Below are positions 10,253 through 23,905 of a stretch of 64,000 nt of DNA, one piece after another; the first letter of the stretch is position 1, and every line of letters begins with the position of its first letter. This DNA is from an uncultured Bacteroidales bacterium. GTDB lineage: Bacteria > Bacteroidota > Bacteroidia > Bacteroidales > UBA7960. The translations under genes and the position numbers were made by a program. The notes under the pieces are model-generated. The model made no database searches, had not been told where the DNA came from, and saw nothing but the letters and a program-made list of their open reading frames with translations. The DNA lies in assembly GCA_964477035.1 (NCBI GenBank), contig CAYZCW010000010.1, positions 31,215 to 95,214 of the forward strand. Reading direction: 5' to 3'.

Positions 10253-10690
10253 TTAAGCAGGGGGGGTTCCCTTGATCCGGATGCCCATGCTGCGAGCCGT
10301 GCCGGCAACCATTTGCATGGCTGACTCCACGGTGAAGCAATTCAGATCGGGCATCTTGGATTCGGCGATATCCCTTACCTGATCCCAAGTGATGGTGGCT
10401 ACTTTCGTGCGGTTGGGTTCTGCTGAACCTGACTGAACTTTGGCTACCTCCCTGAGTTGCACCGCAACCGGGGGGGTTTTGATGATGAAATTAAAGGACT
10501 TGTCCTTGTACACGGTGATGATCACCGGAATGACTTTCCCGGCTTTATCCTGCGTACGGGCATTGAACTGCTTGCAGAACTCCATGATATTCACACCCTT
10601 GGCACCTAAAGCAGGTCCGACGGGTGGGGATGGGTTTGCAGCTCCGCCTTTAATTTGCAGCTTAATGATTCCGCTAACTTCTTTTGCCAT
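10253..10690 (-). CDS. rplK: 50S ribosomal protein L11
   Basis: 145 aa; [12 protein letters not shown] motif. Confidence 0.99.
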
Positions 10691-10785
10691 TTTTCGATTA
10701 GTTTACAAATAAGGGGATCGAACCATTCCTGCAGTGATCAGGGGGCGTATGGAAGCATCCGTCCGCATGGGCGGCCGGAAATACG

Positions 10786-11328
10786 TCATTCCTTTTCTAC
10801 CTGCATGAAACTCAGCTCCAGGGGCGTTTTCCGACCGAAGATCTTTACCATCACCTTCAGCTTCTTCTTCTCTTCATTGATCTCCTCGATCACGCCGGTG
10901 AAACTGTTAAACGGACCGTCTGTCACCTTCACGGTTTCTCCCACGATAAACGGAATGTTCAGTTCTTCTTCCTTGCCGGAAAGCTCATCGACCTTACCAA
11001 GGATCCGATTCACTTCCGCCGGCCGAAGCGGCACCGGGTCTCCTGCAGAGCCTAACCAACCCAGGACACCGGGTACATTCCGGATAATGTGCGGGATTTC
11101 CCCCAAAAGAGCGGCCTCAATCAGAATGTAACCAGGGAAGAAATTGCGCTCTGCGCTGATTTTCTTTCCCTTGCGGATCTGATAGATCTTCTCCATTGGA
11201 ATCAGTACTTGCGAAACGTATTCACCCAGGCCAAGTCGGGCAATCTCACTCTCGATGTATTGCTTGACTTTCTTCTCACTGCCGCTGACGGCCCGGACGA
11301 CATACCATTTTTTGACCTGTTCGCTCAT
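10786..11328 (-). CDS. nusG: Transcription termination/antitermination factor NusG
   Basis: Start moved to ATG 11328 (MSEQVKKWYVV); FPGY motif and KOW domain ending IFGRKTPLEL. Confidence 0.97.
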   Translation of the reverse strand: MSEQVKKWYVVRAVSGSEKKVKQYIESEIARLGLGEYVSQVLIPMEKIYQIRKGKKISAERNFFPGYILIEAALLGEIPHIIRNVPGVLGWLGSAGDPVPLRPAEVNRILGKVDELSGKEEELNIPFIVGETVKVTDGPFNSFTGVIEEINEEKKKLKVMVKIFGRKTPLELSFMQVEKE

Positions 11329-17584: not shown

Positions 17585-17605
17585 CCCATCCCCGCATCCC
17601 GGACA

Positions 17606-17666
17606 GATCCGCCCCGTACTGAATAACAGCCATCTTGCGGCTGGTTTGGGACGGGGCGGATCCTTT
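17606..17666 (+). terminator. Extended hairpin after the peroxiredoxin gene
   Basis: GATCCGCCCCGT...ACGGGGCGGATC with inner CAGCC/GGCTG stem and a short T-run. Confidence 0.45.
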
Positions 17667-17867
17667 GTGGCCTCCGGGCCATGACACGGATTCCCCATTT
17701 AAATTTGCCGGACAGATTGAAATAATGTTTTTTTTTATATATTTGAATGCCTTTTGGACCAAATAATTTAAGTTTAACCACAAACTCGGCCGGCAAGCCC
17801 CTGATCCGCTACCAAACAGAGTGACAGGCTGCTTTGCCAAAGAGAGCAACCAAAAATCAGTTACCCA

Positions 17868-18287
17868 ATGAAAAAACTCGTTACGCTTGTCGTTTTTGCC
17901 TTTTTAGGAATGGCCGCCGTACATGCCGAGGCAGGCATGTACCGTCTCGATGAGGCCGCCGTGGACCAGATGTTCGCCCAGGCCGAACAGGCCGACTTCC
18001 TGGCCATGAACACCATGGCCCCCCTTGCCGGGGCCGCTTCCACAGCCACCCATTTCCTGCAGGCAGAAAAGAATCCGGCCGTGGCCTTCATCCTGGCCTG
18101 GTTCGTGGGCTACCTGGGCATTCACAGGGCCTACCTGGGCACCTCCACGGGAACGATCATCGCCTACATCCTGACCCTGGGTGGCTGCGGGATCGTGGCC
18201 TTTGTCGACTGGGTGGTCCTGCTTATCGGCCTGGTCAATGACGACATATCGAAATACGTGGACAACCCCAGTTTCTTTATGTGGTAG
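17868..18287 (+). CDS. TM2-domain protein with signal peptide
   Basis: Signal peptide MKKLVTLVVFAFLGMAAVHA; TM2 motif KNPAVAFILAWFVGYLGIHRAYLG...LTLGGCGIVAFVD. Confidence 0.88.
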   Translation: MKKLVTLVVFAFLGMAAVHAEAGMYRLDEAAVDQMFAQAEQADFLAMNTMAPLAGAASTATHFLQAEKNPAVAFILAWFVGYLGIHRAYLGTSTGTIIAYILTLGGCGIVAFVDWVVLLIGLVNDDISKYVDNPSFFMW

Positions 18288-18303
18288 GGAGATCCCAGGC
18301 CTG

Positions 18304-19281
18304 TTACTGACCGAACAATTGTAAGAAATGGCCCCGTTGCTCCGGGCCGATGGTGGGATGCGTGGCCGCAAGGCGCTGCAGCTCCTCCCGTTTGGCCCTG
18401 GCATCCGGGCCATTTCCCATTGCCTCCAACACCCGCAGGTGGTAGTACTGGTAGACCAGGTTCCCGGGGTAATGACCGGTAAGCCAGCGGGCATAGGGTT
18501 CTGCCAGGCCCGGATTGTCTTCCTGGTCGAGGTGGATCCGCATTAAAAAATAGGCAGCCTCTGTCTGCCAGATGACATGCCCGCTGCGGAATGCCTTTTC
18601 CAGCTGCCTGAGACCCTTTTCCTTGTCCCCCCTGGGATACAGCAGGGCATACAGCCTTAGGAAGGGATACTTCCGGTCTGCCTGGCCCATCAGGTAATGG
18701 TACATGCCTGAAGTAAGGTAGAAGCCCTCAAAATGTTCCTCCCGCCCGGCCGAGGCCTCGATCTGCACGGCACAGTGCCTGAGGTTTTGCAGGGCCCGGA
18801 TCCAGGCCCCCCTCAACAGATCGATCCTTGCCTGCATGGCATGCAGGCTGATAAAGAAGAACAAATCCACGTCCCGGGGACCTGACTGCAGGGCCTCCCG
18901 GGAGAGGCGGATGGCCAGTTCCGCCGTCTCACGGTAACGGGGGTCCCTGTCGCTGCCGTCTTCCCGGGTTACCATATCCCACCAGAAATAATTCACCCGT
19001 GCCAGGTGGGCAAGGTAACTTCCCGGGTACCCCTGTTGCAGGTCCCTGCTTAACCGCTCGGCCGCCGGAAAATCAAAATGGTACAGGGCCAGAAACGCCG
19101 CCTCCACCTTGCCGGTCGGGGGCGCCTCACCGGCCTCTTCGGGAGCCTGGCCGGCACCCCGTCCGGGGATGAAAACCAGCAGGCAGCAAAGCAGCAGGGC
19201 CAGGCAGGCAGGCCCCGGTCCGGACGGGGTCTCCCCCTGCCCGGATCTTGGTGAAGCGCTGCGGGAATCCATCCTAATCAT
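18304..19281 (-). CDS. Exported alpha-helical repeat (TPR-like) protein
   Basis: Start chosen at ATG 19281, overlapping the upstream stop; hydrophobic signal segment; helical repeats such as GDKEKGLRQLEKA. Confidence 0.75.
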   Translation of the reverse strand: MIRMDSRSASPRSGQGETPSGPGPACLALLLCCLLVFIPGRGAGQAPEEAGEAPPTGKVEAAFLALYHFDFPAAERLSRDLQQGYPGSYLAHLARVNYFWWDMVTREDGSDRDPRYRETAELAIRLSREALQSGPRDVDLFFFISLHAMQARIDLLRGAWIRALQNLRHCAVQIEASAGREEHFEGFYLTSGMYHYLMGQADRKYPFLRLYALLYPRGDKEKGLRQLEKAFRSGHVIWQTEAAYFLMRIHLDQEDNPGLAEPYARWLTGHYPGNLVYQYYHLRVLEAMGNGPDARAKREELQRLAATHPTIGPEQRGHFLQLFGQ

Positions 19282-20164
19282 GAGCCGGGGCTTGTTTCTC
19301 CAGGGCGAACAGTCTGGCAGCCAGGTCCCGCTTGAATGCCTCCATGCGTGCCTCGCTCCCGCCTGCAGCCAGATCCCCGGCCTGGCGTATCCCGCCGAAA
19401 TAGAACGACTGAAACAGGGCCAGTCCCACGCTGACGCCTGCCACATAAAAGCCGTTGCAGGCAAACCAGGCAAAAGAGGCCAGGGCACCCAGCTGGGCCC
19501 CGGCATTCAGGAGTCCCCTGCCGGGATAGCCAGCCCAGACATGCCCGGTTCCCGGCAGGAAGGTGGACAGGCGGCGGGCCCGCCGGGGGTCCTTACGCAC
19601 GGGCACGGCCCCCTCACGGATCGTATCACGCAAAGCGTCAGCCAGCAGGCCGGCCTCCCCGTCCCCGGCGGCAGCCCGTTGCTCCAAATGCCCGGCCAGG
19701 GCCTCCCATTGTTCCAACTGCAGCAGGGTCAGGGCTTCCAGAAGCAGGATGCAGTCCGACCAGGGATTGTCCCCGTAAAAATGGATGATCTGCTGGAGCC
19801 ACGACCGGGCCGTCTGGTAGTCCCCGGACAGGTAGGCACAAAGGGCCAGCTCGTTCAGCAGGGCGAAGCGCAGGGAGTCGGACGGTGCCTGAGGAAGGGA
19901 CCGCTGAAGGTCCACATGGGCCTTGTCAAACAGTCCCATCTGCTTCAGGGCCGAAGCCTTTCCGAGGTTGGCCAGGATGCGGTCACCCGGCCCCTCAGAG
20001 AGGTAATAGGCACGCTCATATTCTATGGAGGCATGAAAATAGATACCCCCGGCGAACAGGCTGTCGGCCTGCCGCAGGGCCCGTGCAGCCTCCTGCCCCT
20101 GGCTAGTTGAAAGCGTTGCGCAGAGGAATATGCAGGTCGAACAAAATGCGCTGGTCCATTTCAT
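19274..20164 (-). CDS. TPR protein with C-terminal TM2/DUF5683-like membrane hairpin
   Basis: Start chosen at ATG 20164 (MKWTSAFCSTCIFLCATLS); ADSLFAGGIYFHASIEYERAYY TPR; DPRRARRLSTFLPGTGHVWAG followed by two hydrophobic helices. Confidence 0.75.
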   Translation of the reverse strand: MKWTSAFCSTCIFLCATLSTSQGQEAARALRQADSLFAGGIYFHASIEYERAYYLSEGPGDRILANLGKASALKQMGLFDKAHVDLQRSLPQAPSDSLRFALLNELALCAYLSGDYQTARSWLQQIIHFYGDNPWSDCILLLEALTLLQLEQWEALAGHLEQRAAAGDGEAGLLADALRDTIREGAVPVRKDPRRARRLSTFLPGTGHVWAGYPGRGLLNAGAQLGALASFAWFACNGFYVAGVSVGLALFQSFYFGGIRQAGDLAAGGSEARMEAFKRDLAARLFALEKQAPAHD

Positions 20165-20966
20165 GGTTGAACTCCTTGTTTTGTCTTCTAACGGCCGTGG
20201 CGCTCCCGGCAATATTGCCCAGATAGAAAATGCCGGTGACTGAAGCCGACAGGATGAAAAGGGCGCTGCGCGGTCCGGCACCCCTGTAAAAGTCCCACGT
20301 CGTCGCCCCCATGACGGCCAGGTAAAGGAAGCCGGCGACCCCTTCAGCCGGTTTTCCCGCGTACACCTTGCCCAGGCCGGGAACGGCCGCCGACAGCAAG
20401 CCGGCAAGCAGGGGCGACCGTCCTCTTTCGGACAGCAGCCTCCCATGGTATTCCTTCAGCCGCAGGGCCTGCTCCTGCATGAGGTGTCCGGTCCCTTCCA
20501 GCGCCTGGGCCTGCCGGGCAAACAGGTCAAAATCCCTGTCCAGCAGCGCCATGCCCGCCAGCTGGAAGCCACGCAGCCTGTCCGGCTGGCTTCCGGATTC
20601 GAAGGGCTGGCTTCCGAGGATGGCCATGGCCTGCCGCGGCCTGCCCAGGTGGGCCAGGTTATAGGCCCCGAAAAAAACCGACCGGGTGTGCAAAGGGCTT
20701 TCGGACGACACGGCAAGCAGGTGCCTGGCAGACGGCTCCAGCTCCTTCTGCAGGTAGAGGACCCATCCTTTGAGGAAGGATACAGAGTCTTCCCTGGCCT
20801 TCGGCTGGGGGGGCAGGCGTTCCAGAAGGAAAAGGCTTTCGGACAATTCTCCCCGGGCCATCAGGTATTCAATGAAGGCCAGCTCCTCCGGCGGACCGCT
20901 GCCGGCGGACGCCCCCGGGGGACACAAAAGGAGGCAGCATAAAAAAGTCAGGGCGGCACGGCTCAT
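20103..20966 (-). CDS. TPR-like protein with C-terminal TM2/DUF5683-like membrane hairpin
   Basis: Signal peptide; helical N-domain; SPLLAGLLSAAVPGLGKVYAG followed by two hydrophobic helices. Confidence 0.8.
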   Translation of the reverse strand: MSRAALTFLCCLLLCPPGASAGSGPPEELAFIEYLMARGELSESLFLLERLPPQPKAREDSVSFLKGWVLYLQKELEPSARHLLAVSSESPLHTRSVFFGAYNLAHLGRPRQAMAILGSQPFESGSQPDRLRGFQLAGMALLDRDFDLFARQAQALEGTGHLMQEQALRLKEYHGRLLSERGRSPLLAGLLSAAVPGLGKVYAGKPAEGVAGFLYLAVMGATTWDFYRGAGPRSALFILSASVTGIFYLGNIAGSATAVRRQNKEFNHEMDQRILFDLHIPLRNAFN

Positions 20967-21466
20967 TCCTGCTTCTTTTTCTTGTACACGCCCACCCCCT
21001 CCATCACCTTTCCGCTGGCCTCACCCAGGCTCAGTGGATGAACATCCAGGATGGCGATGCGGTTGCAGCGGGTCAGCCGGTCGGCCGTGAAGACGGTCCC
21101 CCTTGCCAGGCCGTACTCTTCGATGAGGGCTTTGCTGAAGGAAGAACAGGAATGTTCGTAGATGCAGTCCGAGGGCCACTGCGGGGAAATGAAACGCTGG
21201 TAGGTGAACAACATGCCTGACAGGGCGAGCGACAGGGGGTTGTATTTGATCAGCCAGTGACGGCCTGCCCCGAGCAGTTCGAACGACCCCTGGGCGTGGC
21301 TGCAGGCCGGGCAGGACGCATCCGACAGCAATTCCCAATCCGTTTTGGGCTGTACCCGCCCGGGGGGATCGCTCCCCAGGGCAGGGACGCCCCAGGCCAG
21401 CAACAGGAGGGCCAGCAAGACCAACTTCCCCGCTTGCCGGGGCTTACCGCAGAATCCGTGCATCAT
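20963..21466 (-). CDS. YidD-family protein with N-terminal signal-peptide-like extension
   Basis: YQRFISP...CIYEHSCSSFSKALIEEYG...G...DRLTRCN, the three-Cys YidD pattern; start chosen at ATG 21466. Confidence 0.85.
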   Translation of the reverse strand: MMHGFCGKPRQAGKLVLLALLLLAWGVPALGSDPPGRVQPKTDWELLSDASCPACSHAQGSFELLGAGRHWLIKYNPLSLALSGMLFTYQRFISPQWPSDCIYEHSCSSFSKALIEEYGLARGTVFTADRLTRCNRIAILDVHPLSLGEASGKVMEGVGVYKKKKQE

Positions 21467-22196
21467 CGGGTATGGTGAATTGAAACCAGGGGCTGACGGC
21501 CTGCTGGTTGATGCGTACATCCGAAAAAATCAGGCGGTTCACGATGGAATCCCCGCCCGGCAGGTAATTGAACTCGGTGATGGTCAGGGGCAGGACAAGT
21601 TCCGGAAATTCCCGGTAGTTGGTATAATAGACCTTCTTCACCAAGTGCCTGCCCGCATCGTAATAGCCCGCATAGATGGGCAGGTGGTTCTCGTGCACCA
21701 GCTCGATCCGGTTGAACAGGTGGTACATCTCTGCCGGGGGGAACCAGGAGGTCCTCACCAGGCCGTCGATGAAGGAGGTCTCCATCAGGGAAAAGCCCAT
21801 CTGGCGCAGGCCCAGATCCTGCAACTGCCCGTTCAGGAAAAAATATATCAGGTTGTTTTCCGTGCTGTACTGCATGCCCTGTTCCCGGTAGACCGTGTTC
21901 TCCTCTTCATCGTAAACGGACAGTTCTCCCTTGTTGTTGGTCACCATGACCTGCCGGACGGGCGAGAGGTAGTGTGTCAGCAGCCGGCCGTCCCGGGCCG
22001 AGTAGTACATACCGGCCACGACATCCACCCTCTTTCCGCGCTGCAGGTTCTGGCTTTCCATGTGCAGCATGATGCGGTCCACGGCCAGGTGCCGAAAGCC
22101 CGACGTCATTAAAAACATGCCGGCAGCCAGGAAGATGGCTGTAAGCTTCGGCAGGCGGTGCCGCATCCGAGTAGGGAAACGTTTCAGAAATGCCAT
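21444..22196 (-). CDS. Exported beta-rich protein, LolA-like fold inferred
   Basis: Signal peptide; alternating beta-strand pattern; C-terminal FQFTIPDDARI resembles the LolA-type tail. Confidence 0.65.
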   Translation of the reverse strand: MAFLKRFPTRMRHRLPKLTAIFLAAGMFLMTSGFRHLAVDRIMLHMESQNLQRGKRVDVVAGMYYSARDGRLLTHYLSPVRQVMVTNNKGELSVYDEEENTVYREQGMQYSTENNLIYFFLNGQLQDLGLRQMGFSLMETSFIDGLVRTSWFPPAEMYHLFNRIELVHENHLPIYAGYYDAGRHLVKKVYYTNYREFPELVLPLTITEFNYLPGGDSIVNRLIFSDVRINQQAVSPWFQFTIPDDARILR

Positions 22197-22217
22197 GGGG
22201 ATGCTGGTTCTTTGGTG

Positions 22218-22225
22218 CAAATATA
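22218..22225 (-). promoter_or_regulatory. -7 promoter element heading the five-gene LolA-like/YidD/TPR operon
   Basis: TATATTTG on the minus strand about 20 nt upstream of ATG 22196. Confidence 0.65.
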
Positions 22226-22378
22226 CAACATATCAGATGTTGCTGCCGCATTCTTCGTTGCCACATGGACGGGTGCCGCCTTCCCGGCCGGCGATTCCCC
22301 CGGTCGACGGCTCACGCCGGCAAAAACCGCAGCGAACCGTCCCATCGTCCGGGGAGGCGCCCGCCCCCCGATCCGGCC

Positions 22379-23905
22379 TTATTTGCGCAGGGCGATCCGG
22401 AAGGTGGTCCCGCGGTTCAGGGCGGACTCCTTCACAAACAGCCGGCCATTGTGATAGCTTTCGATGATCCTCCTGCTGAGCGACAAGCCCAGCCCCCACC
22501 CCCTTTTTTTGCTGGTGTACCCGGTCTTGAACACCGTGTTGAATTTGGAAGAGGGGATGCCCTTCCCGGTGTCGCTCACGTCGATCACCACCATGCGGGG
22601 CTGTTCCCTGATCTGCAGGGCAATGTCCCCATAGCCATCCATGGCATCGACGGCATTCTTGATCAGGTTCTCGATCACCCATCCGAACAAATTCGCGTTC
22701 AGGGGAACCATCACTTCCGGGCGGCTGCTGGTCACCACGAAGCCCACCTTTCTGGAGGTCCTGGATTTCATGTAGGTCACGGTCTCTTCCACCACGGAAA
22801 CAATGTCCGTGGGAGAAAGGCTGGGGGCCGACCCGATCTTGGAGAAGCGTTCCGTGATATTCTCCAGCCGGTGAATGTCCTTCAGGATCTCGCCAATGGT
22901 CTCTTGGTCAACGCCTTTCATCTTCAGCAACTCCACCCACCCCATGAGGGAAGAAAGCGGGGTGCCCAGCTGGTGGGCCGTCTCCTTGGACATGCCCACC
23001 CAGACCAGGTTCTGCTCCGCATTCCTGGCCAGGCTGAATAAGAAATAGGATACCAGCAGGAAAATGCCGATCACCAGAAGTTGTGCGATGGGGTAGTAGC
23101 GCAGCTGGGTGACCAGGAAGGAGTTGGTGTAATAGACGTAAGCCTTGCCATAAGTGGGCAGGTAGATTTCGATGGGCGGGTTTTTCTCCGCCATGGACCG
23201 GATCAGGGACGCCACCTCTTCCGGATCGTCCTGGTTCACCTCCCCGATGTTGCCGTAGTCCAGCAATTGCCTGCCGGTGCTGTCGGCCACGATGACCGGC
23301 AGGTTTGCCGAACCCACCACAATGTCCGAAATAAAGGAGTTCACCAGATCCTCCAGCACCTCCCGCAGCTCGGTAAAAAGCCGGGAGTCCCGGTAGTAAA
23401 TATACTGCACGTTTCGCCCCACGGCAAACTCGATGGGGGGATAATCCGAGAAGTACGCCAGCAGGTCCCCCTCCAGGCGGGAAGCCCCGGCGAACCGGTC
23501 ATCCAGGTTCATGCTGGAATAGACGGTGCCGTCCTCGTCGACCAGGATGACCGGGATGGTGGTGTTGGAGCGGAGCACCTCGATGATGAAATTCAGCTCG
23601 TCGGAACTCTCGGCCACGTTCAGGCGGCGCTGGACCTTGGCCTGGAGCTCCACCCGCTTGCGCTCCTCCTGGCTGATGGCATCAAAGAATTCCTCGGTAT
23701 ACTGCACCAGGCTGGCCCGCCGCTGCACCGCATCGGCCCACAGCTCCACCTTGCGCCTTTCATCCTCGGTGATCTTGCGGACAATCACATCGGCATAATA
23801 CAGGGACACCCCCACGATCAGGGCCGCGAACAACAGCAGCAGCAGCTTCCAGCGCTGTTTGCGGGAGGACATGTCGAAACCGGTGATTTCCCTCAGCAGG
23901 TTCAA
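22379..23905 (-). CDS. Membrane sensor histidine kinase (no adjacent regulator)
   Basis: Two TM helices; H-box ETAHQLGTPLSSL; N-box ENLIKNAVDA; DTGKGI and GWGLGL motifs; alternative start ATG 23872. Confidence 0.93.
   Translation of the reverse strand: MNLLREITGFDMSSRKQRWKLLLLLFAALIVGVSLYYADVIVRKITEDERRKVELWADAVQRRASLVQYTEEFFDAISQEERKRVELQAKVQRRLNVAESSDELNFIIEVLRSNTTIPVILVDEDGTVYSSMNLDDRFAGASRLEGDLLAYFSDYPPIEFAVGRNVQYIYYRDSRLFTELREVLEDLVNSFISDIVVGSANLPVIVADSTGRQLLDYGNIGEVNQDDPEEVASLIRSMAEKNPPIEIYLPTYGKAYVYYTNSFLVTQLRYYPIAQLLVIGIFLLVSYFLFSLARNAEQNLVWVGMSKETAHQLGTPLSSLMGWVELLKMKGVDQETIGEILKDIHRLENITERFSKIGSAPSLSPTDIVSVVEETVTYMKSRTSRKVGFVVTSSRPEVMVPLNANLFGWVIENLIKNAVDAMDGYGDIALQIREQPRMVVIDVSDTGKGIPSSKFNTVFKTGYTSKKRGWGLGLSLSRRIIESYHNGRLFVKESALNRGTTFRIALRK

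Follow-up and report, generated by a model that had tools for sequence, protein, structure and literature searches.

Five overlapping genes on the minus strand and a sixth gene that converges on them form an envelope module that is real, widespread in the Bacteroidota and, as far as our literature searches reach, undescribed. The module lies in a stretch of 64,000 nucleotides from an uncultured Bacteroidales bacterium (assembly GCA_964477035.1, contig CAYZCW010000010.1), which is referred to as the window throughout. Its genes encode a LolA-fold protein (g1), a YidD-like protein (g2), two paralogous proteins that combine a TPR-like periplasmic domain with a membrane domain (g3 and g4), a TPR-like solenoid protein (g5) and a TM2-domain protein (g6). 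A prediction made earlier from the letters of the DNA, hereafter the original prediction, had noted the five overlapping genes behind a -7 promoter box together with the convergent TM2 gene, and all of this was confirmed. It had further proposed that the genes constitute one extracytoplasmic module that includes the TM2 gene, its dedicated task being to chaperone, mature or insert small TM2 hairpin proteins. The first half of this proposal is supported by what follows, the second is not.

Composition and distribution of the module

Three sets of loci were compared. The first comprises 20 loci taken from evenly sampled genomes of the order, 53 of 201 of which gave a match to the g3 query. The second consists of the best 80 of 187 confirmed loci (217 pattern matches) in public genomes. 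The third adds 16 loci from a phylum-wide sample with hits at E <= 1e-10 in at least 30 of 301 genomes, a lower bound as eight candidates were scored per genome. The open reading frames of the first two sets were annotated with iterated profiles, and in all three sets every open reading frame of at least 110 residues entered the clustering of neighbours. In the 100 loci of the first two sets, all of which contain g3, the paralogous g4 was found in 99, g2 in 88, g1 in 81, g6 in 74 and g5 in 24. Clustering of all 116 loci returned the TPR/membrane family in 116, the YidD-like family in 100, the LolA-like family in 84, the TM2 family in 74 and g5 in 24; the next family, a histidine kinase of close relatives, was present in 20. 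Only these six families recur around each other, and g2-g3-g4 form the core.

Both g1 and g6 accompany the core in 61 of the 78 loci with room on both sides, neither does so in 15, g1 occurs alone in two and g6 alone in none; the core devoid of both genes was also encountered in other classes of the phylum. The TM2 gene is therefore linked to the operon in other genomes, as had been anticipated; of the 63 loci that have a LolA-like gene and room on either side, 61 contain it. It occupies two main placements: in 34 loci it lies downstream and converges on the operon, in 26 it immediately precedes g1 in the same orientation, and a single case is found elsewhere. The genes g1 and g6 are an add-on pair gained and lost together, and g5 is an optional extra of this add-on.

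Twelve genomes of the unbiased sample in which the core locus missed g1 and/or g6 were searched as a whole. Full-length g1 and g6 reside on other contigs in five of them, with g1 beside a g2 in three; another five have neither g1 nor a full-length g6 anywhere; and the remaining two are intermediate, one with a truncated TM2 match and one with a weak g1-like match only. Dispersed parts still co-occur within genomes, and the genes do not scatter independently. The module is split in five genomes (G085, G060, G036, G022 and G037; loci L151-L162), where g1-g2 pairs, g3-g4 pairs and g6 are found on separate contigs; all parts are present, and some of the splits may be contig ends.

Two further arrangements were observed. 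Family f172 (L133, L134, L143, L144 and others), which belongs to another class, carries the core in 16 of 16 sampled genomes, and the loci fetched from it are without g1 and g6. The closest relative found (L053:3414-10528, 61% identity in g3) has two modules in opposite orientation around a single g6, in the order g1-g2-g3-g4-g5 (+), g6, g4-g3-g2-g1 (-). The window's own genome has one module only.

Altogether, the module ranges over Bacteroidales, Marinilabiliaceae, Prolixibacteraceae, Cytophagales, Chitinophagales, Sphingobacteriales and one metagenome-assembled genome of the Flavobacteriales. Cultured carriers exist, namely Anaerophaga thermohalophila DSM 12881, Spirosoma sordidisoli, Spirosoma telluris and Arsenicibacter rosenii, so that the predictions made here are testable. 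No paper, supplements aside, was found to join the YidD, LolA-like, TM2 and TPR families of the module, and no match of such composition emerged from the described systems with which it was compared, in line with the original statement that no characterised system of this kind is known.

g1 is LolA-like in its fold and is predicted to dock g6

Bacteroidota have several LolA/LolB paralogues with open roles, and the module represents one more LolA-fold lineage in this phylum, now with a defined genetic context. Judged from its structure model, g1 is LolA-like at the level of the fold and not by family membership. The AlphaFold2 model (alignment of 63 relatives; predicted local distance difference test, pLDDT, 93.5) displays the open half-barrel with cavity helices. 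Foldseek matched it to LolA, the LolA-superfamily protein NE2245, LolA3 and LolB from P. gingivalis and DUF1329 with E values of 6e-11 to 1e-8, the top match being LolA from P. aeruginosa (E = 6.3e-11), and returned 120 matches at E <= 0.001. The best template modelling scores, 0.54-0.58, were obtained for NE2245, P. gingivalis LolA3 and LolB, and DUF1329. The sequence, however, remains below the curated LolA cut-offs (PF03548, 20.9 versus 23.6 bits, E 3.4e-4; TIGR00547, 22.8 versus 112 bits, E 5e-5), and a profile built from the 63 relatives found no LolA among PDB sequences, only the DUF1329 protein 4z48 (E 0.007). The designation of the first gene as LolA-like therefore stands for the fold and falls for the sequence family. 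A conserved arginine in the beta2-beta3 loop is given as a LolA feature in PMC13103446, which also reports that LolA3 does not pair with LolB. Neither YidD nor TM2 is mentioned in the main text of the papers on Bacteroidota LolA/LolB paralogues (PMC13103446, PMC11885536), supplements aside, and in the Lipocone preprint LolA-like operons appear in the company of other partners.

g6 scores clearly above the cut-off for TM2 (PF05154, 51.3 versus 27.9 bits, E 1.3e-13) and is the only TM2 match in the genome. Its relatives begin with a cleavable-looking signal peptide, followed by a conserved helix (Y25, D28, V32, D33, F36, A39), an unconserved linker, the TM2 hairpin and a conserved tail with an invariant terminal tryptophan. 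Two to four tandem copies of g6 are present in L088, L098, L102, L103, L110 and L130 (L130:4926-6560 and 10654-11052), and one copy (L088:287-685) is without the conserved HR of the TM2 loop. Within the literature as far as it was accessible, neither a function nor a partner of bacterial TM2 proteins was found, only animal TM2D/Notch studies and a domain paper.

Mature g1 (residues 36-250) and mature g6 (residues 21-139), each with its own alignment, were co-folded in three runs and compared with controls. The interaction prediction score from aligned errors (ipSAE) amounted to 0.71, 0.74 and 0.73 (median 0.73) versus 0.24 for the best control; in calibration, 58 of 80 solved complexes attained that mark, as against 2 of 110 mismatched pairs, counts that hold only roughly when our own alignments are used. 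The runs share at least 33% of their contacts. Predicted contacts on g6 fall on residues 21-46, i.e., on the N-terminal helix including Y25, F36 and A39, and not on the hairpin. Those on g1 alternate along the strands (49/51, 190/192, 205/207, 219/221), which places them on one face of the g1 sheet. The g1 contact positions, with V167, Y175 and T207 among the conserved ones, are more conserved than the rest of the protein (2.59 versus 2.11 bits; 120 of 10000 random subsets were as high). The co-fold thus supports binding of the N-terminal helix of mature g6 by g1, and the interface that had been looked for among the six proteins appears, in the models, between the LolA-like and the TM2 protein. 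A bacterial TM2 protein thereby gains a predicted specific partner and a testable interface.

The original prediction had offered g6 as either a substrate or a subunit. As it is the N-terminal helix and not the hairpin that is modelled in g1, g6 resembles a docking subunit more than a substrate. If the system were a dedicated TM2-hairpin machine, g6 would be its substrate, the exported YidD-like protein an insertion helper and the LolA-like protein a chaperone. The predicted binding of g6 by g1 agrees with such a machine, and so does a motif in g3 and g4 that loosely resembles the start of TM2; the tandem g6 copies in six loci, an arrangement often seen for cargo genes, keep the substrate reading alive. 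We nevertheless consider it unlikely. The core of YidD-like and TPR proteins exists in the absence of g6 in the 15 of 78 loci and in the other classes mentioned above, so that a machine dedicated to TM2 insertion is not supported, and five core-bearing genomes are without a full-length g6 relative anywhere. Furthermore, the predicted contact is made through the soluble helix of g6, the operon contains no energy source, and g6, by its ordinary cleavable signal peptide and very hydrophobic helices, should be well suited to the general Sec/YidC route.

The same docking also brings to mind RseA/RseB, where a LolA-fold protein sits on a small membrane protein. RseB is found among the structural matches of g1 (3m4w, E 5.6e-6), g1 is predicted to reside on the periplasmic segment of a membrane protein, and in the window the gene immediately 5' of g1, in the same orientation, encodes a histidine kinase. 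A sensor of this type for envelope stress or lipid status, with the LolA-fold protein being displaced by a lipid signal, nonetheless appears improbable to us. A cytoplasmic output domain is lacking, given that the inside loop of g6 comprises about 10 residues and the tails of g3 and g4 about 25, no sigma or anti-sigma gene recurs in the 116 loci, and the kinase neighbour is retained in only 20 of these, all of them close relatives.

g2 is a second, putatively exported YidD-like protein

g2 exceeds the cut-offs for YidD (PF01809, 51.7 versus 27 bits, E 7.6e-14; TIGR00278, 55.2 versus 40 bits), and its residues C101, C107 and C134 show no variation across 53 sequences, one of which is the canonical YidD of the genome. 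Compared with the latter, it carries about 50 additional residues before the domain, about 35 after it and a signal-peptide-like N-terminus. The canonical yidD (102.5-103.6 bits) resides on another contig (C3, L001:1495-1899, minus strand) directly downstream of rnpA, which makes g2 an additional paralogue; the canonical gene is also adjoined by a hemD-like gene and a gene for an S41 peptidase. With its signal-like N-terminus and its location in the operon, g2 does not fit the description of a small cytoplasmic protein encoded beside rnpA. In 6 of the 116 loci, from two clades, g2 and g3 are fused into a single open reading frame, with an E value of 8.5e-16 for Pfam YidD in one of the fusions, and the Atlas contains a cluster of 427 residues with YidD on 51% of its members. 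The exported YidD-like protein of the original prediction is hence retained as such, on the strength of the YidD cut-offs and of signal-like N-termini in 50 of 53 relatives, two properties that were read from sequence.

To our knowledge, discussion of YidD has until now been confined to a small protein of the cytoplasm that assists YidC/Sec insertion. If a paralogue that is exported, and at times fused to a periplasmic TPR protein, is widespread, the domain would also work on the far side of the membrane. In the one role published for it, YidD acts from the cytoplasmic face (Yu et al. 2011, as cited in PMC8082313). Among the matches listed in the partly available literature on YidD, YidC and insertion factors, there is no exported paralogue.

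g3, g4 and g5 resemble TPR proteins

g3 and g4, which are paired in 99 of 100 loci, belong to a large family: among 1.84 billion proteins it has 548 representatives at E <= 1e-30 and, at the looser threshold of E <= 1e-10, 2936. No curated non-TPR Pfam family exceeded its cut-off in the members of the g3/g4 family that were scanned. The g4 protein of the window stays below the cut-off for TPR_12 (26.6 versus 30.1 bits, E 7e-6), and among 64 relatives TPR_2 is matched in 26 and TPR_6 in 21 at E <= 0.01. Look-alike architectures, consisting of a signal peptide, TPR and a membrane part, occur in Spirochaetota, Thermodesulfobacteriota and Poribacteria according to the Atlas.

The original prediction had placed a shared motif, related to TM2, at the end of two proteins. 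The motif does exist in both g3 and g4, but it is not terminal: in each of them it opens a C-terminal membrane domain of about 105 residues. Its relation to TM2 turned out to be weak (hhalign probability 28.6%, E 6e-4, 42 columns), and TM2 (PF05154) reached only 12 bits on the g3/g4 membrane domain, below the cut-off, with 1 of 64 members at E <= 0.01. DUF5683 (PF18935) matched 16 of the 64 members at this threshold, the best with 4.4e-5, all of them below the cut-off; members shown individually attained at most 18.9 versus 26.7 bits, and only over positions 2-58 of the 151-position model. On these scores, the motif is at least as close to DUF5683, of which a true gene is present elsewhere in the genome, as to TM2. 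Since the matches to both families are weak and below the cut-offs, the membrane domain is treated as a family of its own. No functional paper on DUF5683 was found in the literature.

A scan for hydrophobic segments of 19 residues picked out a single segment in g3 and, in g4, two that overlap. Read by eye, the membrane domain of g3 appears to consist of three hydrophobic helices, and we infer a positive-inside topology for it; the tail of g3, predicted to be cytoplasmic, carries a conserved ILFxLHIPLR.

g5 is an all-helical solenoid according to its AlphaFold2 model (pLDDT 86.8). Neither Pfam nor NCBIfam nor PDB sequences provided a match, and its profile found nothing in PDB at E <= 1. Its structure matches are TPR proteins only, and their statistics are weak (Foldseek E 2e-3; VIA Z up to 14.7). 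The best of them include TPR-like proteins that bind lipids or sterols, with Z values of 14.7 for PTPIP51, 13.4 for TatT, 12.8 for a sterol transporter from bacteria and 11.8 for TPAT.

Export signals

Signal-peptide-like starts had been noticed on each of the five minus-strand genes; they are present on all six proteins and recur in nearly all relatives. Export was judged with an in-house heuristic, i.e., an N-terminal K/R followed by a hydrophobic stretch, and not with a trained predictor or SignalP. By this measure, signal-peptide-like N-termini are present in 61 of 63 relatives of g1, 50 of 53 of g2, 18 of 18 of g3, 62 of 64 of the g4 set, 23 of 25 of g5 and 53 of 53 of g6. The g1 protein of the window has the weakest signal segment of the six, which stays below the threshold in the scan for 19-residue hydrophobic segments. 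A reading of g3-g5 as lipoproteins was discarded by eye, as no small residue of the lipobox type precedes the cysteines within their N-termini.

Gene layout and surroundings

Coordinates of all features are collected in Table 1. With the start codons chosen here, the five minus-strand open reading frames extend from 22196 to 18304 and overlap at every junction (g1/g2 23 nucleotides, g2/g3 4, g3/g4 62, g4/g5 8), and 16 nucleotides separate the stop codons of g5 and g6.

Table 1 Positions of the six genes, their domains and the promoter boxes within the window
Feature	Position	Strand	Basis or remark
-7 promoter box TATATTTG, Bacteroidota-type	22218..22225	-	21 nucleotides 5' of the g1 ATG
TATATTTG box, second copy	17738..17745	+	122 nucleotides 5' of g6
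g1, LolA-fold protein, signal-peptide-like N-terminus, 250 residues	21444..22196	-	structure model and Foldseek
g2, YidD-like protein, signal-peptide-like N-terminus, 167 residues	20963..21466	-	PF01809, TIGR00278; alternative start 21520
YidD domain in g2	21056..21220	-	Pfam match
g3, 287 residues, with signal peptide, periplasmic TPR-like domain and membrane domain at the C-terminus	20103..20966	-	
g3 membrane domain	20106..20420	-	opens with the first motif of the original prediction; three hydrophobic helices by eye
g4, paralogue of g3, 296 residues	19274..20164	-	
g4 membrane domain	19277..19591	-	opens with the second motif of the original prediction
g5, all-helical TPR-like solenoid, signal-peptide-like N-terminus, 325 residues	18304..19281	-	AlphaFold2 model
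g6, TM2-domain protein, 139 residues	17868..18287	+	PF05154
g6 residues 21-46, N-terminal helix of the mature protein	17928..18005	+	conserved; predicted docking in g1
TM2 hairpin of g6	18066..18215	+	Pfam match
g6 C-terminal tail ending FFMW	18243..18284	+	conserved; last residue W invariant

TANNTTTG occurs 17 times in the window as opposed to 13.1 +/- 3.2 times in shuffled sequences; since it is not enriched, only the placement of the boxes is informative. Scans for intrinsic terminators and sigma-70 promoters remained at chance level. The module is flanked by unrelated housekeeping genes, encoding a CDP-alcohol phosphatidyltransferase, PurS, a UPF0102 protein, a peroxiredoxin, a histidine kinase, a GH3 protein and a deoxynucleoside kinase. 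Among these, the gene for the sensor histidine kinase (HisKA and HATPase_c; 22379-23905, minus strand) ends 182 nucleotides 5' of g1. The region 17600-22400 was found nearly complete in several sludge metagenome runs from 2020, and no RNA run was listed. An origin in defence or phage was dropped: none of the six proteins was matched by PADLOC, and PHROGs matched g6 alone, with seven phage families of unknown function and a likeness confined to the TM2 part.

A possible function in the envelope

We propose, with slightly less than even confidence, that the gene products form an undescribed inner-membrane complex that faces the periplasm and handles a hydrophobic envelope molecule. g3 and g4 would constitute a membrane-anchored TPR platform on which the YidD-like domain is displayed outside the inner membrane, and g6 would be a subunit rather than cargo. 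After cleavage of the signal peptide, the helix of g6 (residues ~21-46) is envisaged to lie on one face of the g1 sheet, taken here as the concave cavity side. Such docking would tether an otherwise soluble LolA-like carrier to the membrane, comparable to the recruitment of LolA by the LolC hook, and would leave the FFMW tail of g6 free for the TPR domains. g5 may act as an optional third TPR-like part in the long version of the module. In the most speculative step, the complex would bind or pass on a lipid, the acyl group of a lipoprotein or another membrane-derived ligand without an ATPase of its own, and this step would take place at the periplasmic face of the inner membrane. The notion of a hydrophobic ligand stems from the LolA fold of g1 and from g5, which weakly resembles TPR proteins that bind lipids.

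A more specific form of this proposal is an ATP-independent envelope machine, in which an exported YidD-like domain is mounted on a TPR/membrane heterodimer and the LolA-fold carrier is parked on a TM2 'hook'. We regard this form as possible, if rather doubtful. Were it true, it would amount to a new route by which lipids, lipoproteins or hairpin proteins are moved or sensed, and it would provide the first function for bacterial TM2 proteins and for YidD outside the cytoplasm. A machine of this kind would be present in many Bacteroidota and, by architecture, perhaps in other Gram-negative phyla.

Several points weigh against the complex proposed here. It is a purely computational proposal. A role for a YidD domain outside the cytoplasm is without published precedent, and export is deduced from an in-house heuristic rather than a trained predictor. 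The docking of g6 in g1 is a model in which the pLDDT of the partner is 43-45, leaving the partner's own fold uncertain, and its calibration counts apply to our alignments only roughly. The Z values that connect g5 with lipid binders lie within the chance range of helical repeats according to the tool's own note, so that this likeness is a lead only. No transporter, ATPase or outer-membrane partner is linked to the module in the 116 loci, which leaves a role in trafficking with no visible energy source or destination. The loci themselves are non-independent kin, and 80 of the 116 were collected by a search biased towards near kin of the query. The g3 tree offers just six supported independent pairs that differ in g1; in these, g6 changes in the same direction in three to four, in the opposite direction in none and remains unchanged in two to three, with a median p of 0.125 in the sign test.

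This test is underpowered and many of the loci belong to related Bacteroidales, both of which would suit the view that common descent alone keeps the TM2 gene next to the operon and that the two share no function. We deem this highly improbable. The linkage of g6 is maintained in two positions and orientations, in 34 and 26 loci; conservation extends to none of the other neighbours; where g1 and g6 are unlinked, they still co-occur; and the predicted interface is built on conserved residues.

Comparison with known systems

With the RseA/RseB anti-sigma module, the system shares only the LolA fold of g1, and it does not belong to that group. DUF5683, a membrane family of unknown function from Bacteroidota, resembles g3 and g4 in the PGxGxxY motif, which matches the first 25-58 of the 151 model positions in 16 of 64 members; the remainder of the model is unmatched and the scores stay below the cut-off. 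The lipid-binding TPR-like proteins, i.e., TatT of the TPAT transporters, the sterol transporter and PTPIP51, are similar to g5 in fold over most of each target; they differ in that a relation to g5 is undetectable in sequence and no TRAP or RND transporter is linked to the module.

g2 is distinct from canonical, cytoplasmic, rnpA-linked YidD. It passes the curated cut-offs and keeps the three invariant cysteines, but departs from the canonical protein by the signal-like N-terminus, both extensions, the placement in the operon and the fusion to the TPR/membrane protein in six loci. g6 is a clear member of the TM2 family (PF05154), which comprises bacterial YozV and animal TM2D1-3/almondex; beyond the common hairpin, its relatives possess a cleavable signal peptide, a helix conserved at the N-terminus and, at the C-terminus, an aromatic tail that is invariant.

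Finally, the module is distinct from the Lol pathway with LolA, LolB and LolCDE and the LolA2 and LolA3 proteins of Bacteroidota. The sequence of g1 scores below the family cut-offs, and no gene for LolCDE or LolB recurs near the module in the 116 loci, the rest of the genome not having been searched for them. What the two have in common is the half-barrel fold of LolA and LolB, and the predicted partner segment on g1 recalls the hook of LolC in LolA, with 6f3z among the fold matches.

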